A DNA stretch of 64,000 bases from the IMG/VR virus record IMGVR_UViG_3300007177_000042; one strand, 5' to 3'. The first letter of the stretch is position 1. Every line of letters starts with the position of its first letter. The notes below the pieces were generated by a model. The model did not search any database and was not told the origin of the DNA. It saw nothing but the letters and a program-made list of their open reading frames with translations. The position numbers were made by a program, and so were the translations under genes. The DNA is from a virus (Duplodnaviria > Caudoviricetes). This document shows, one piece after another, positions 7,285 through 40,295 of this stretch.

Positions 7285-7358
7285 CCGCTGAAGAAGCCTT
7301 GGGGTGAGGATAAAAAGCCCCTTGACTTTCTGTAAAGTTCTGACATACTGATTTCACG

Positions 7359-7547
7359 ATGAAACACGAAAAGTGGGTTGATGTCAACGGAGTTACAGTC
7401 TACGAAACCGGCCGTCGCAGTTCCAAATTAGGTATCAACAAAGTGTTTCTCACCCGTGGTGAATTGATCGCCACAAAAGTGTTGTTGTCAGGCACCGTAA
7501 CCAAATACGGTACAACATTTATCGCTCCTTTCAAAAAGATTGTTTGA
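7359..7547 (+). CDS. Hypothetical protein
   Basis: Promoter geometry. Confidence 0.65.
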   Translation: MKHEKWVDVNGVTVYETGRRSSKLGINKVFLTRGELIATKVLLSGTVTKYGTTFIAPFKKIV

Positions 7548-7580
7548 CTTTCTCTAAACTGCTGATAGGATAGTTCCACA

Positions 7581-7739
7581 ATGATTAAGATTACATTCAC
7601 TGATTCGTCAACTGTTGTTGTCAAGCGAGTTGTTTTTTATCTTGTATACGGACGACCGGTGATTGGTGTTATCTACAATGATGGTGATGAACCGATTGTG
7701 CAATGTGTTGAAGAAGTGGAAAGTATTGAAGCTGCTTGA
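7581..7739 (+). CDS. Small hypothetical protein (52 aa)
   Basis: Promoter geometry; read by eye. Confidence 0.6.
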   Translation: MIKITFTDSSTVVVKRVVFYLVYGRPVIGVIYNDGDEPIVQCVEEVESIEAA

Positions 7740-7772
7740 CATTCTCTAAATTGCTGATACACTGTATCCACA

Positions 7773-8000
7773 ATGAAAAACGAAGATGTGGTTCGTATCT
7801 GTCGGAACATCATCACCGGACAGTATTACTTGGTTCGTGGTGAATGTAAGGATTTGTTTGACGAATACGACTATGTGGTAATTCGAAGGGATGATAAAGA
7901 CGACTATAAAGACCACTATGTACGCAAACATCTGTTTGACAGTTTTGAGAATGTATCGTATCGGATGTTCAAGAAACTTAACAAAGAAGCTGGGTTCTAG
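7773..8000 (+). CDS. Hypothetical protein
   Basis: Promoter geometry; TAG stop. Confidence 0.7.
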   Translation: MKNEDVVRICRNIITGQYYLVRGECKDLFDEYDYVVIRRDDKDDYKDHYVRKHLFDSFENVSYRMFKKLNKEAGF

Positions 8001-8041
8001 TTGACTTTCGATAAAACTGTGATACATTGATTTCAGATTTC

Positions 8042-8116
8042 GGGATCGTAGCTCAGTGGTAGAGCAGTGGTCTTTTAAACCATTGGTCGTGGGTTCAAGT
8101 CCCACCGGTCCCACCA
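8042..8116 (+). tRNA. tRNA-Lys(UUU)
   Basis: Canonical cloverleaf, loop CTTTTAA, CCA. Confidence 0.95.
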
Positions 8117-8122
8117 CTTTTA

Positions 8123-8750
8123 GAATTCATCAGGTTGCCGAATACGAGGCTTAATCTGAAAGGACGATGAGTCTGATGAATTCTTGATTTACAGATTGTT
8201 GTCCGCGTGGATATGGTACGAACGTGGACTCACGAAGCGAGGCGGCCCCAAATCGACAACAATCTGTTAAGGTTTGCGGTGATCCTAATCAAAACCGCTT
8301 GACTTTCTTCACAGAAGTTCTTTACAAGTCAGAAAAGTCTGATAAGATATTTTCAGTTGATGAGGCTATAGACAATCCGTTGGGAAATAAAGCAGAGAAA
8401 TGACGGGACTCTGCCATCAACCTATAATTTTCAGTGGAAAATAACCGGAAGTAATGTACCGGGCCTCCACAAGGAGGTGAGATACGTAGTCATCGTGTAT
8501 CCACTGACAGCTAACTCAGAGAGTGCCAGTCAATAGATGCCGAGCATGGGGCGACTGGTAATGCCGCTGAGGAAATGGAGAACCAGACCTGCTGTTCAAA
8601 GAATGAAAACTGGATCACTTTTAACCAAGCAATAGAGATTAGCTACTCGAAAACAGTCAAAAGTTGTACTGATAACAGCGTTGCAGGCGGCCTGTAAAAT
8701 AATGTACGCAAACGGAAACAGATGAACAATGACTTTTTTGCTTGGTTGTA
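8123..8750 (+). ncRNA. Cluster of stem-closed structured RNAs (unknown)
   Basis: Terminal helices GAATTCATCAG/CTGATGAATTC (8123-8183), ACAGATTGTTGTC/GACAACAATCTGT (8191-8267), GTTGATG/CATCAAC, TCAGTGGA/TCCACTGA, AACCAAGCAA/TTGCTTGGTT (8623-8747); no plausible + strand ORF. Confidence 0.55.
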
Positions 8751-8762
8751 TTTTTGAAAGCA

Positions 8763-8912
8763 TAGCAAGATAACAGATAGACGCCGAACCTGTTGGTTGT
8801 AAAAGGTGACGCACACCGCCGTCGCGGGGGTCCACGTTCAATTCGTGGTAGGTTCGTAGGGAACATACGGCCATCCTTAAATGGAGAGTCGGTGAAATCC
8901 TGAAACTTGCTA
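8763..8912 (+). ncRNA. wwAGA/GAAC/GTGAAATC motif RNA, copy 1
   Basis: TAGCAAG/CTTGCTA outer helix; CAG-ATAGA-[CGAACCT...AGGTTCG]-GAAC-[...]-GTGAAATC-CTG. Confidence 0.65.
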
Positions 8913-8949
8913 TTGACTTTCTCTAAAACTCTGATAAGGTAGATTCACA

Positions 8950-9108
8950 ATGATTGAGATTATCCGTAATCCGTTGACAAAGTTGTCACTTCTCAGCAAC
9001 ATTTGGATTGAAGATGGTATGTTGTTTCACATCCTCATTCCACATGACACAGAACAAATCGAATTGTTGACTGACAATGAGATTGGTCAATATATGGGCG
9101 GCAATTAA
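8950..9108 (+). CDS. Small hypothetical protein (52 aa)
   Basis: Promoter geometry. Confidence 0.6.
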   Translation: MIEIIRNPLTKLSLLSNIWIEDGMLFHILIPHDTEQIELLTDNEIGQYMGGN

Positions 9109-9316
9109 AAAGTTGTTGACTTCATGATCTTTCGTTGGTACAGACAATGGAAATGTAGTCGTGGAAACCACGAATTGGTGTCTGGTTATGTGCCTACCAA
9201 CAACCCTTTGGCACTAGATCGTGAAGTCAAGTGTGTGCATTGTTCATTCAAAAAAATCGTTGGTAGACAATACTTCTTCGATTGACTTTCAGTAAACCAC
9301 TGATAGGATAATCATC

Positions 9317-9553
9317 ATGGCATACGATCCGGATCTTAGAAACTGTCAAAACATTCTTGAATCCAAGAGAACTTTTGTTGCCGATGACAGACAACATGCA
9401 TATGAATCTGTTGTCAATGCCCTTAGCAAGGCAGGCTTTGGTGTGACCATGGTGGGTGATGTTCTCACTGTTCGTAACAAAGGATTTGATGCTACGTTTA
9501 TTCTTCACGAAGTAAGGCTTGACAGAGACCGCGTCGAACCTGATGGAAAATAA
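9317..9553 (+). CDS. Hypothetical protein
   Basis: Promoter and ORF. Confidence 0.65.
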   Translation: MAYDPDLRNCQNILESKRTFVADDRQHAYESVVNALSKAGFGVTMVGDVLTVRNKGFDATFILHEVRLDRDRVEPDGK

Positions 9554-9815
9554 AAGCGTGTATATGTCAAATACGAACTGGACAGATACACCGCCAAATA
9601 CGCCGGGGTGGTATTGGGTAAGACGCAAGAAAGAATGTAGTGTGGAGTATTTTCCATACTATGGTCAATACCCCGAACACTGGTCTGTCATTCGTCAGAA
9701 TACTTTGGACATGCTGATTGAAAGCGGTAACCAACAGCTAACAGATGAATTTGCCAATCTTGACCAGAAGACGTTCGTCGTAGAATACAACGGTCCAATC
9801 TTTCCACCAAACTAG
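9519..9815 (+). CDS. Hypothetical protein (WTDTPPNTPGWYW motif); true start likely downstream
   Basis: ORF track. Confidence 0.6.
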   Translation: MTETASNLMENKSVYMSNTNWTDTPPNTPGWYWVRRKKECSVEYFPYYGQYPEHWSVIRQNTLDMLIESGNQQLTDEFANLDQKTFVVEYNGPIFPPN

Positions 9816-9852
9816 TTGACTTTCAGTAAACCACTGATAGGATATTCGCACA

Positions 9853-10011
9853 ATGAAAATCTTGGTGTATTATCCTGCTACGCAAAAAACCCAAATCATT
9901 GAATGTGAAAGAATTGAGGCGGGTCCCGGCGGAATCATGTGGGTCAATCGCCGTGATTGTGGATTTGTTGGATTTTGCGAGGACTATACAATTACCATAG
10001 TCGATCATTGA
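9853..10011 (+). CDS. Small hypothetical protein (52 aa)
   Basis: Promoter geometry. Confidence 0.55.
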   Translation: MKILVYYPATQKTQIIECERIEAGPGGIMWVNRRDCGFVGFCEDYTITIVDH

Positions 10012-10019
10012 CTTTCAAT

Positions 10020-10135
10020 TGACTGGTGGCGAAACGGCAAACGCACGGAGGCATCCGATTCTCCAATGTTGTATGTCGGCAGACAGAAGCATTGGCATTG
10101 CACGAATGAAGGTTCAAATCCTTCCCAGTCAACCA
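10020..10135 (+). ncRNA. tRNA-scaffolded RNA (acceptor, D-arm, T-arm and CCA intact; anticodon region replaced)
   Basis: TGACTGG/CCAGTCA-A-CCA; D arm GCG-AAACGGCAAA-CGC; T arm GAAGG-TTCAAAT-CCTTC; 116 nt. Confidence 0.7.
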
Positions 10136-10180
10136 TTTTCCGTTTGACATTTTCTAAAACCCTGATAACCTATTGTTGTT

Positions 10181-10528
10181 ATGAAAATCACATACTCAAT
10201 CGCAGAAGCACTCACCATCCTCACCGAACGTGCCAAGGCACTCAACCACATTCAAGATTTGTCGGTTGAAGTAACATACCCACAAAACCCCATTGGTGCA
10301 CAAGACACCAATACCACCGATCAACATCCTTTGGAAGCTTACGCCGTAGTCGTCCGGGAATATGGCGGTTCTAGGCACAATACGAACAAGATTCCAGCCA
10401 TCAAGGCGATTCGAGACCGAGTCCGGGGTTTGGGACTCGCTGACGCAAAGTGTGTCATTGAATCCGACCCCGCGTTGGTGCTCATTCACTTTTCTCGCTG
10501 CAATACGTTGAGCGGAATTTCCGAGTGA
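10181..10528 (+). CDS. Protein with a ribosomal protein L7/L12 C-terminal-like domain
   Basis: NKIPAIKAIRDRVRGLGLADAKCVIES compared with bL12 KKIxVIKxVRxxTGLGLKEAKxLVE. Confidence 0.7.
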   Translation: MKITYSIAEALTILTERAKALNHIQDLSVEVTYPQNPIGAQDTNTTDQHPLEAYAVVVREYGGSRHNTNKIPAIKAIRDRVRGLGLADAKCVIESDPALVLIHFSRCNTLSGISE

Positions 10529-10675
10529 CCAGCCGATAATCAATTCACAAGGTTGTGGGTCATCCTTTCAACAAAACCCCACCCATATATACAGGGCATC
10601 TGCGCTGCCCACCAGCCGCTTTTGTCGCCGGATGCCACTTGACTTTCTCTAAAACCGATATACACTGTACCCACA

Positions 10676-10933
10676 ATGAATCCTACGAACTACACGGTCG
10701 GTCAACGCATCATCCTCACCAAAGACAACTGGTTGACCATTCGCAACAGCAATCGCAGTATTCACGCATATCCAGACGATAACTACGTTAACATCGTTTA
10801 TCAATTGATGACCAACAACGTCGCAGGCACCGTCACCAAGCGATTTACGCCCGGTTATGAGTTCAACGTTACCTTTGACAATGGTCAAGTGCTGCAAATG
10901 AAAGATCACTGGGTCACTCCCATTTCCAAGTAA
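10676..10933 (+). CDS. Hypothetical protein (SH3-like beta fold?)
   Basis: Promoter geometry. Confidence 0.65.
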   Translation: MNPTNYTVGQRIILTKDNWLTIRNSNRSIHAYPDDNYVNIVYQLMTNNVAGTVTKRFTPGYEFNVTFDNGQVLQMKDHWVTPISK

Positions 10934-10988
10934 TTCAGTTCAAAAATCCGGTTGACTTTCTCTAAAACTTCGGTAACCTAGTCTCCTA

Positions 10989-11204
10989 ATGAATAACGAA
11001 CTGATCGCTAAGGCCCTCAAGAAGTTCCCCAAGGCCAAAAAGATCGCAGTCGAAAACTTCACCATGGGCTACAACGAACTGTCTATGGAAGCTTCCATGA
11101 ACCTCGAAATGGATGCCTCACTCTACAAGTGGAACGCACACACCACCAACGCCATTCGTTACGTGCTACAACACAAACACGCATTCAAAACCATGGCAGA
11201 CTAA
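10989..11204 (+). CDS. Hypothetical protein
   Basis: Promoter and ORF. Confidence 0.7.
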   Translation: MNNELIAKALKKFPKAKKIAVENFTMGYNELSMEASMNLEMDASLYKWNAHTTNAIRYVLQHKHAFKTMAD

Positions 11205-11402
11205 CACACAATCGGTTGTGGGTGATCCGTCAAAACCCTCAACAACACCACTACAAATAGTAGTGTCGCGACAATAAGAACTGCTATTCAATCAAAAACA
11301 CCTCGCTACGTCAACCACATAATGGTTTTCCGCGCCTGGTGTTGCTGCTTTTTATAGAAAGTTCTTGTGTTTGCCACTCTGCCGGTATAGAGTATTGCCA
11401 CG

Positions 11403-17047: not shown

Positions 17048-17137
17048 GCCAACATGACCCGAATGGCTAAGGGCCCTGTTTTGTAAACAGGTATGAGGTA
17101 AAACTCTTTGTCGGTTCAAGTCCGACTGTTGGCTCCA
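17048..17137 (+). tRNA. tRNA-Thr(UGU) with long variable arm
   Basis: GCCAACA/TGTTGGC-T-CCA; loop TTTGTAA; V arm GAGGTAAAACTC. Confidence 0.85.
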
Positions 17138-26189: not shown

Positions 26190-26417
26190 GTGGTGTTTCA
26201 CTTCAACAAGGCACATCTGAATGATAATAATATTCCGATGTGGGTTTTAAAAACAAAAGGCGAGACACATTATGTCAATCATGTGATTGCTAATGTTGGG
26301 TGGTCTACAAAAGAAACACCTGATAATAATCATACCAAAGGCAGTCTTAAGTTTAAGAATGTCGATGTGATTATTGATGAACAGAACGAGGCAACAATTT
26401 CTGCGGCTGTAGCTTAA
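26190..26417 (+). CDS. Conserved phage hypothetical protein
   Basis: FHFNK...PMWVLKTKGETHYVNHV...TKETPDN.HTKGS; 3' end overlaps the suppressor tRNA. Confidence 0.7.
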   Translation: MVFHFNKAHLNDNNIPMWVLKTKGETHYVNHVIANVGWSTKETPDNNHTKGSLKFKNVDVIIDEQNEATISAAVA

Positions 26418-26478
26418 CGGTATAAAGCAGTCGTCTCTAAAACGACCAATATGGGTTCGAATCCCATCAGGCGCACCA
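26403..26478 (+). tRNA. Amber suppressor tRNA (anticodon CUA)
   Basis: GTCGT-CTCTAAA-ACGAC; canonical D and T arms; A73-CCA; one G:G mismatch in the acceptor stem. Confidence 0.85.
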
Positions 26479-26634: not shown

Positions 26635-27565
26635 ACAATAAGAATTCGATGGAGTTGAGACTGTAGCTCAACTTAAAAGAGTGACTAGGAACCGAATCCA
26701 TCAAATCGTTCTTTGTAAGAAACAAGATTTGGGGTGCTTGAACTCCATATAAGATAGTGAGTAGTAATACTCATGAAAGAGGTAATCCCCTAACGGATCC
26801 TCGCCTTCGCAAGAAGGACAGTCAAGCAACTGGCAATGTCTGTGACTTTCATCCAAAAGGTGGAAGTATATCCGACGCTGGATCGACAAATGATAACTGA
26901 GGGTAACACTGTAAGTTGTCTACTAACGGTACCGCCGAGCACTGTTGATTCCTTAAGTGGAACAGCCACGAATAAGACACAAGCCAAAGATACGGGTGTG
27001 AGACCGCAATCAAATGCTCGTATGTAGATTGATAGAAAGTGGGCAGGGTAACCAGAACACAATCTTGAAAATCGGTGAAGTATCCGCAAGAGAAACACAT
27101 GTGGTGTGTCGCATATTGTATCCCAAAAGGGTATGAAACGACAAACAACGCACATCACGGTTAGGTGCATAATTAGCTCAATGGTAGAGCAATTCCTTTG
27201 TACGGAATATGTTATTGGTTCAAATCCAGTATTATATTAAAAACGCAAAGTCGTTGTTTGTCTAAGATGAAAGTGACTTAACTCTGTGACCGAAAGGTAA
27301 CACAGACAACGAAACATCCGCAAGATGCTAGTTGTTAATTGGAGTCTGAACGGAGTCCGCAAGACTTAACTGCTCGCAAGGCAGACGGTTGGATGAAGGT
27401 TGAATAGTCTTAGGTTAAGGTTGAAAAGCCACAACCCTAAAAAGGCAGTCATGTTGAATACAGTTATAGACGCAAGTCGTAACCGTGGATATGTTGGGAA
27501 GCCGATCCGCAAGATTGGTATAATCTAACTAAAGGTCAACAGATAAAGCGGTAATCTCACGCCAA
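26635..27565 (+). ncRNA. GOLLD-like giant ornate RNA (about 930 nt)
   Basis: ORF-poor; many GCAA/GAAA tetraloop hairpins; terminal GCG-GTAATCTCA-CGC hairpin recalled as a GOLLD 3' signature; promoter TTGACG...TAAGAT upstream; tRNA-array context. Confidence 0.7.
27167..27238 (+). tRNA. Degenerate tRNA-Thr(UGU) embedded in the GOLLD-like RNA
   Basis: D arm GCTC/GAGC; ATTCC-TTTGTAC-GGAAT; T arm; weak acceptor stem, no CCA. Confidence 0.6.
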
Positions 27566-30599: not shown

Positions 30600-30693
30600 G
30601 GTCCTGTAGTTTAATCGGTAAAACCCCATACTTATGATATGGTAATCGCTAGATTGGCGTAAATTCTCGGTTCGAATCCGGGCGGGACTACCA
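30600..30693 (+). tRNA. tRNA-Ile(UAU) with long variable arm
   Basis: CCATA-CTTATGA-TATGG; V arm CGCTA-GAT-TGGCG; 94 nt. Confidence 0.8.
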
Positions 30694-39911: not shown

Positions 39912-40295
39912 GGGCGTGTACTGGTTTCGATTCAAAAATGTAGGTGTGCTAGGCACGTAGAGGACGATAGTTGGCCTCTTTAATCATCTATCAAAATATA
40001 ACTGCTAACAAGAAGAGCAAAGTAGTAAGCTACGACTTCACTTCCCGTGAGGCCGTTGCTCTCGCAGCCTAAGTTGCTGCACATCTTTTATGATGATGTC
40101 TGATAATTGTAAAAGATGATAAACATCAGGCTAGATAACAATTTGTTTGGGATTGTTGTTGATCTTCTACCAGACACCATCAACATAAAGTTTGTTGTTT
40201 TAGATTTGTGTTGATGTAACAAAAAACAACTAAGCGTGTAGTCTGGTATACTTTAAGTTTTGAAGACGCGAGTTCGACTCTCGCCACGTCCACCA
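39912..40295 (+). ncRNA. ssrA: tmRNA
   Basis: GGGCGTG/CACGTCC-A-CCA with G3-U70; T arm; tag (A)ANKKSKVVSYDFTSREAVALAA* at 40004-40072. Confidence 0.95.

Follow-up and report, generated by a model that had tools for sequence, protein, structure and literature searches.

The T4 RNA C and RNA D (species 1 and 2) are small, stable, non-decoding RNAs from the phage tRNA region, with no known role (PMC3014915). The RNA considered here is likened to them by description, as another small non-decoding phage RNA. The present family, however, lies outside the tRNA array, has a Leu-type frame, and belongs to uncultured freshwater phages. Engineered "tRNA scaffold" RNAs are built on the idea that a tRNA body confers processing and nuclease resistance. 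Their plan matches that of the phage RNA: the acceptor, D, and T arms are kept, and a foreign structured domain replaces the anticodon arm (PMC3753655). Those scaffolds are laboratory constructs, whereas the present family would be natural and evolving, with exchangeable inserts.

Other comparisons involve natural RNAs. The tmRNA, often phage-encoded, is charged without anticodon recognition. Its tRNA-like domain joins an acceptor and T-arm module to a non-tRNA domain, as in the phage RNA, but the latter has no G3-U70 alanine identity pair, pseudoknots, or conserved tag frame, retains a full D stem, and spans only 116 nt. The Y-RNA-like YrlA and other tRNA mimics also are non-decoding, and copy the tRNA elbow and an acceptor-like helix; the ends of YrlA RNA lie in the Ro-binding stem, not in an acceptor stem. 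The phage RNA has no Y-RNA match in Rfam, and no Ro/TROVE gene was seen beside any copy.

Type-II tRNA-Leu shares several features with the phage RNA: the 7-bp acceptor stem; U8; the 3-bp D stem with A14, A15, and G18G19; the 5-bp T arm with a UUC.A..U loop; U48 and A73; in two lineages, an encoded CCA; and a long extra arm that precedes the T arm and follows the site of the anticodon arm. The phage RNA differs in having a 4-bp hairpin with a GGCA tetraloop instead of an anticodon stem-loop, and its extra arm is 33 nt long, irregular, and followed by a 12-nt joiner. Non-decoding tRNA-like small RNAs of phages are a known kind; so far as could be found, no description exists of a Leu-type family with exchangeable central domains.

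The RNA gene (Table 1) was noticed in a window of 64,000 nt, which spans bases 40906-104905 of an IMG/VR virus contig 107.7 kb long; CheckV puts the completeness of the contig at 31%. The source is a jumbo phage, a complete relative of which is 296 kb. Thirty-five tRNAs called by ARAGORN, a tmRNA (39912-40295), and a GOLLD RNA also lie in the window. Small ORFs, each with a promoter-like site, surround the gene, which is located some 7 kb upstream of the main array of tRNAs.

Table 1. Coordinates of the RNA gene, its parts, its surroundings, and tRNA-shaped RNAs of related phages (window positions unless a contig is named)
Feature	Coordinates	Strand	Remarks
Whole tRNA-shaped RNA gene	10020..10135	+	116 nt; 3' end is A73-CCA
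Acceptor stem UGACUGG/CCAGUCA	10020-10026 with 10125-10131	+	7 bp, no mismatch
D arm GCG-AAACGGCAAA-CGC	10029..10044	+	3-bp stem; 10-nt loop with A14, A15, G18G19
Hairpin 1 CGGA-GGCA-UCCG	10046..10057	+	Occupies the place of the anticodon arm
Linker AUUCU	10058..10062	+	Invariant; potential pairing with GAAU 10104-10107, both sides invariant
Long arm CCAAUGUU...AGCAUUGG	10063..10095	+	8-bp basal stem, GUA/GA internal loop, 4-bp tip hairpin
Long-arm tip UGUC-GGCA-GACA	10074-10085	+	GGCA-capped
Single-stranded joiner CAUUGCACGAAU	10096..10107	+	Ends in U48 beside the T stem
T arm GAAGG-UUCAAAU-CCUUC	10108..10124	+	Canonical: 5 bp, loop UUCAAAU
Acceptor 3' strand, A73 (10132), and CCA (10133-10135)	10125..10135	+	A73 invariant across the family
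Promoter-like site TTGACT-16 nt-TAGGAT	9816..9843	+	TG before second hexamer; consensus match only
ORF52 (52 aa)	9853..10011	+	No family match; kept in RNA-less alleles
120-nt segment (CAAU plus RNA)	10016..10135	+	TTT on both sides; absent from L126 and L127
ORF52 plus RNA cassette	9831..10142	+	792 other bases instead in one population
tRNA-shaped RNA in RecT-DUF2800 slot	L122:2116-2226
tRNA-shaped RNA in RecT-DUF2800 slot	L120:2417-2569
tRNA-shaped RNA in RecT-DUF2800 slot	L120:2661-2759		G73-CCA

Much of the original prediction, which had described a perfect acceptor stem with A73-CCA, a Leu-type D arm, a canonical T arm, and an oversized variable domain (CCAATG/CATTGG, TGTC-GGCA-GACA), stands up both in the sequence of the RNA, U8 included, and in comparison with its homologues. 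The minimum-free-energy fold forms the CGGA-GGCA-UCCG hairpin and the long arm tipped by UGUC-GGCA-GACA; it does not use the GGAG/CUCC stem that had been proposed to close a 10-nt anticodon loop. The sequence GGCA occurs four times in the 116 nt, as against a mean of 1.0 in dinucleotide shuffles (P = 0.005 for four or more). The copies begin at 10036 in the D loop, at 10050 and 10078 in the two tetraloops, and at 10094, where G10094-G10095 and the joiner together make the fourth. All are conserved, the D-loop copy reading GGUA in three homologues, and every member of the family contains GGCAU.G.A.GAAU around the joiner.

Homologues were retrieved from IMG/VR and JGI metagenomes by model searches and by exact-pattern scans built from the loops and joiners. 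L112 came from IMG/VR, L113-L116 from JGI metagenomes, and L117-L119 from IMG/VR (8 contigs); the homologues score 85-134 bits against the covariance models R1 and R2. Copies identical to the window RNA are present in two further contigs (L124 and L128), reached through relatives of a neighboring ORF. The family thus comprises six distinct sequences in three genomic contexts, between which no DNA or protein similarity is detectable apart from the RNA. Because the retrieval patterns were taken from the central domain, part of that domain's conservation is ascertainment.

A first pattern scan gave five matches, all by chance within unrelated sequence, and further pattern scans of viral sequences added no members. 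Exact-pattern scans of 185,579 prokaryote genomes gave no match, with patterns so strict that this does not prove absence. The GenBank phage collection yielded nothing similar to the DNA of the region or to the nuclease protein of L114, and locus searches seeded with the proteins of the two nearest ORFs found no relatives. On 48 contigs related through a baseplate gene, model R1 detected nothing but ordinary tRNAs; most of these contigs stop short of the early region. One such relative (G001) does span that region and has no cassette. Long relatives of the jumbo phage lack the RNA because this region is hypervariable.

Comparison of the six distinct sequences, drawn from three lineages, addresses the secondary structure directly. 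When pairs were counted on a MAFFT alignment, pairing held in 96.6% of pair cells, versus 34-44% in slid controls; both sides change in 15 of 31 pairs, and none of 500 shuffles reached the observed values. Counting on a model-fitted alignment gave a similar result. RNAalifold, applied to the MAFFT alignment, recovered six helices with 13 of 29 pairs compensated, and chose hairpin 1. The changes are spread over the molecule: all seven acceptor pairs are kept in all six sequences, and five of them change on both sides; the D stem goes from GCG/CGC to GUG/CAC, which is compensatory; two T-arm pairs change on both sides; and so do all four pairs of the long-arm tip. (Basal pairs 3 and 4 of the long arm are compensated in L114 and mismatched in clade B.) These compensating base changes, in otherwise unrelated phage DNA, identify a real RNA family, and they argue against the decay that the original prediction had set out as an alternative. 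Stems are 57-69% identical between lineages and unpaired positions 85-97%, and in this the tRNA frame and the central domain are alike.

The same comparison separates the two ways of drawing the anticodon-arm region. Hairpin 1 is paired wherever it is present, with A-U changed to C-G and G-C to G-U in clade B. The window sequence allows the GGAG/CUCC stem, the third pair of which is A-U in two homologues and unpaired in three, without any compensatory change. Covariation therefore favors the CGGA-GGCA-UCCG hairpin over a GGAG/CUCC stem with a 10-nt loop, so that the homologue comparison proposed as a check bears out the acceptor, D, T, and long arms of the original prediction and speaks against its anticodon arm. 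An idea of Shine-Dalgarno-like self-pairing by GGAGG/CUCC also was dropped, as GGAGG is not conserved in clade B.

Within clade B, RNA identity is 89-93%, not above that of the flanks. A 4-nt deletion in L113 removes hairpin 1, and a 10-nt deletion in L117-L119 removes the 5' strand of the basal stem. Either the central domain tolerates damage, or the deleted copies are dead.

Does the RNA decode? The expectation that standard finders would pass over it proved correct. ARAGORN makes no call on the window RNA when introns are disallowed, and Rfam holds no family that matches it, the sole match being a partial one to tRNA (RF00005) at 18.7 bits versus a gathering threshold of 29 bits. A homologue, L116, reaches 37.9 bits with the Rfam tRNA model, but only with the 17 anticodon-arm positions of the model replaced by a 58-nt gap. 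Three essentials of a tRNA are present, namely the acceptor stem, the D arm, and the T arm with its elbow nucleotides, and all three helices are 100% paired and covarying. A 5-bp anticodon stem with a 7-nt loop and U33 is absent from all six distinct sequences, in which the supported structure has a 4-nt loop. Lacking an anticodon loop, the RNA is unable to decode. On this comparative evidence the gene is a non-decoding RNA, not a disguised decoding tRNA, in agreement with the tRNA-scaffolded, non-decoding RNA first envisaged.

Other RNA classes were considered and set aside. For tmRNA, pair 3-70 is A-U, G-C, or U-A, never G3-U70, and neither ARAGORN nor Rfam makes a tmRNA call. A mini-tmRNA tag frame could be read in the window (GCA UUG CAC GAA UGA), but becomes GCA UAG in other members, and so no tag frame is conserved. 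A CRISPR repeat mimic, that is, an RNA anti-CRISPR with a Cas12a-type UCUAC-loop-GUAGA hairpin ending in U, likewise is not conserved, and the Rfam search gave no CRISPR-DR match for the family. RNA positions 48-57 read UGUUGUAGAU in clade B only (L112, L116, L113, and L118), with GUAUGU in the window and GUAAUC in L114. The clade B sequence is identical to the 3' end of Cas12a CRISPR repeats. This likeness probably is coincidence, since it is lost in the other lineages and overlaps the covarying tip stem.

The frame that remains is that of tRNA-Leu. With a single-sequence covariance model, the nearest paralogues in the window are tRNA-Leu(CAA) and tRNA-Leu(UAA), and the D arm alone also aligns best to these two; the label "Leu-type" given to that arm therefore was correct. 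Identity elements for bacterial LeuRS are A73, U8-A14, A15-U48, and G18G19-U55C56 (PMC2377443). The nucleotides of this set (A73, U8-A14, A15-U48, G18-U55, and G19-C56) are all present, and invariant, in six of six sequences. In Aquifex LeuRS, removal of the anticodon stem-loop in its entirety reduces affinity by only 2.5-fold (PMC2377443). With the identity set intact and an enzyme that ignores the anticodon, it is plausible that the RNA is a LeuRS substrate and becomes leucylated. CCA is encoded in the window lineage and in L114 and L115. Clade B has CUU at the same place, and its RNA therefore would require CCA addition after trimming at A73.

Each genomic context places the gene among different neighbors. 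In the window, which represents the first, no promoter was found directly upstream of the RNA; the promoter-like site ahead of ORF52 probably drives both ORF52 and the RNA. The second context is clade B. Here a conserved extended -10 element, TGnTATAAT, precedes the start of the RNA by 7 nt, and a T run follows the RNA, a placement that suggests a free-standing gene. In the largest clade B contig (L118, which has a tmRNA), the interval 7311-11348 places the RNA downstream of genes for a cREC (cyclic-phosphate processing receiver) domain and a NIF-type phosphatase, and upstream of weak matches to 2H-phosphoesterase and P-loop kinase. In L112 the RNA is preceded by NAPRTase and a protein ending in a T7 gp5.9-like RecBCD-inhibitor domain. 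The third context, that of the L114 phage group, is a module of RecT, the slot with the RNA, a DUF2800 nuclease, a helicase, and a methylase. As a separate observation, the window promoters at 9816-9850 and 10144-10180 (TTGACw ... cTGaTAnnnT) and the clade B promoter at L118:8868-8890 (cacTGaTATAAT) have a common extended -10 style.

Natural alleles of the window locus are of three kinds: the RNA is present (L124 and L128); the 120-nt segment is absent; or the whole cassette is deleted or swapped. The 120-nt-less allele also is marked by the joint in run X8 and by the loose end of run X18. In L125 the ORF52-RNA cassette is deleted between promoter repeats, and both L125 and X7 exemplify deletion or swapping at these repeats. 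The window promoter repeats coincide with the break points of the cassette swaps. DNA runs from 14 studies, of fresh, estuarine, and aquaculture waters, contained the stretch. Relative to the window, L128 differs by 8.5% in the flanks, and not at all across 9959 to 10198. Since the 100% identity of L124 and L128 with the window extends 60 nt into both flanks, it is no proof of selection on the RNA; it may instead reflect recent recombination. Among transcript data, the metatranscriptome contig X20 covers only 10175-10322, and the RNA-library contig X18 is the allele without the RNA.

The downstream ORF at 10181-10528 (+) has a weak match to the C-terminal domain of ribosomal protein bL12 (26.4 bits, with a cut-off of 25.9), and its relatives carry the same Pfam mark. 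This ORF is kept in RNA-less alleles, and so there is no obligate link between it and the RNA.

The third context reveals a further layer of variation. Among relatives of the L114 phage, other tRNA-shaped RNAs occupy the slot between the RecT-like and DUF2800 genes, in L120 as two elements in tandem. These RNAs in L120 and L122 have the acceptor stem of L114 (GAGCGCG/CGCGCUC), a similar D arm, and, in two of them, A73. Their central domains, of 60-100 nt, are unlike the GGCA domain. Again ARAGORN calls none of them, and their Rfam tRNA scores are 18-41 bits. The same acceptor stem with differing middles implies that one chassis carries several middles; the GGCA middle, for its part, is found on three different acceptor stems. 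The slot in L121 (2385-2480) and L123 (2885-2980) holds an unrelated GC-rich structured stretch, conserved between the two, to which the tRNA-like model gives no match. Other insert-bearing, tRNA-shaped RNAs encoded by the jumbo phage itself also were folded, and fall outside this family.

These features suggest, with about even confidence, a conserved phage-borne RNA family derived from type-II tRNA-Leu: a chassis matured as a tRNA, and probably leucylatable, that displays a factor-binding or decoy GGCA domain and travels as an optional cassette. RNase P would cut the 5' end; the 3' end would be trimmed, and CCA would be added where it is not encoded. The tRNA half would provide for processing, stability, and possibly charging. 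The central domain, with its repeated GGCA and invariant joiners, would be the working part, its likeliest role being to bind, or act as a decoy for, a factor of host or phage in their conflict. The gene itself would be an accessory cassette, not always present, that moves between phages. A broader proposal, offered tentatively, is that in freshwater phages the leucylatable tRNA-Leu chassis is a natural display scaffold for exchangeable RNA cargos, the GGCA domain among them, with others on the same acceptor stem in sister phages and elsewhere in this jumbo phage; the cargos would be used in counter-defence or host takeover, processed and protected by tRNA enzymes, and shuffled between phages by recombination.

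The division of labor could be the reverse, a possibility that is the main rival and seems rather unlikely. The tRNA half then would be the effector, and the central domain only would block decoding: a chargeable or CCA-bearing mimic of tRNA-Leu would soak up host factors acting at a tRNA's acceptor end or elbow (3'-end-modifying toxins, nucleases, EF-Tu, or LeuRS), or would hand leucine to a non-ribosomal aminoacyl transferase. The full LeuRS identity set and invariant A73 are as this would have them. Clade B adjoins NAD/RNA-repair conflict genes (cREC, NIF-phosphatase, 2H-like, and kinase-like; NAPRTase) (PMC7824862), and its strong-looking promoter would suit a stoichiometric decoy. Such a role does not explain, however, why unpaired central bases are conserved as much as the tRNA loops, nor why sister phages exchange their central domains while keeping the same acceptor stem. 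Moreover, the contexts differ between lineages, and the 108-kb contig, representing only 31% of the genome, shows no L/F-transferase or class I synthetase domain. Very little credence attaches to the function first suggested, an aminoacylatable decoy whose anticodon arm, with its 10-nt loop, would engage anticodon nucleases or sensors of uncharged tRNA. That tRNA-cleaving defences and phage tRNA countermeasures are well established counts in its favor, as does the ability of GGAG to pair with CUCC in the window and in L114; but the third of these pairs is broken, uncompensated, in three of five informative homologues, and the rival hairpin covaries. There is no conserved anticodon-like 7-nt loop to act as bait for a nuclease, and L113, a natural variant, has deleted the hairpin in that region. 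The lack of an anticodon loop makes a nuclease decoy unlikely. Ribosomal sensing of uncharged tRNA needs codon pairing, which this RNA presumably could not provide.

Three further explanations would give the mature RNA no role of its own or a conventional one. It is improbable that the gene is functionless for the phage, whether as a mobile mini-cassette, selfish or neutral, or as a relic of tRNA-Leu in decay. The precise 120-nt presence/absence polymorphism bounded by TTT has the look of one, closely related clade B copies have differing indels, and short direct repeats overlap the 3' end at several loci; yet compensation maintains six helices in three lineages with unalignable flanks, loops stayed 85-97% identical while the stems turned over, and six clade B loci conserve the consensus extended -10. 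A processing or termination signal acting in cis is quite improbable too. In this "tRNA punctuation," RNase P together with RNase Z or E would cut an early transcript, releasing a roleless RNA. The window RNA does lie between two ORFs without a promoter of its own, in every lineage the 3' end is followed by AU-rich or T-rich runs, and L120 has tandem elements. Against this, the clade B promoter starts transcription at about the first base of the RNA, a punctuation signal has no need of a conserved central sequence, and RNA-less alleles keep the same flanking genes. Scarcely credible, finally, is an interrupted tRNA that becomes a normal decoding tRNA when an intron is excised, an outcome that had been named as one that would overturn the original prediction. 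With introns allowed and a lowered threshold, ARAGORN proposes a tRNA-Pro(UGG) with a 40-nt intron in the window, but its anticodon stem contains a G.G mismatch and G-U pairs. Across the family the forced models are inconsistent: the proposed tRNA is Pro(UGG), Pro(AGG), or Ser(CGA), the intron measures 14, 20, 24, 32, or 40 nt, its borders shift, and the covarying tip hairpin is broken. An intron of 40 nt is far too short for group I, and bacteria are not known to have a system for short tRNA introns.

Phage tRNA genes usually are read as a codon supply or as anti-defence spares. Here, decoding has been abandoned and the RNA kept by compensatory evolution, and the same RNA has moved among unrelated phages. 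Should the tRNA body prove a chassis with the middle as its payload, nature would have its own version of the laboratory tRNA scaffold, and there would be a new class of small phage RNA to try against tRNA- and RNA-directed defences. The RNA also is a substrate whose charging can be tested, and so bears on the question of non-decoding aminoacyl-RNAs in phage infection. Because genes of this sort escape the usual tRNA finders, many further examples may lie in phage "tRNA islands" and early regions.

Several other tRNA-like features of the window deserve mention. ARAGORN calls no tRNA-Asp in the contig. Rfam tRNA matches of 36-49 bits at 22504-22581, 23655-23725, and 25549-25619 are not called by ARAGORN. 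Two tRNAs are unusual for type I: the 90-nt tRNA-Thr(UGU) at 17048-17137 has an extra stem-loop in its variable region, and the 94-nt tRNA-Ile(UAU) at 30600-30693 has a variable region of 26 nt. A tRNA at 26403-26478 has the anticodon CUA and is a candidate amber suppressor. The GOLLD RNA (27101-27563; 212 bits) encloses a tRNA-Thr call at 27167-27238.
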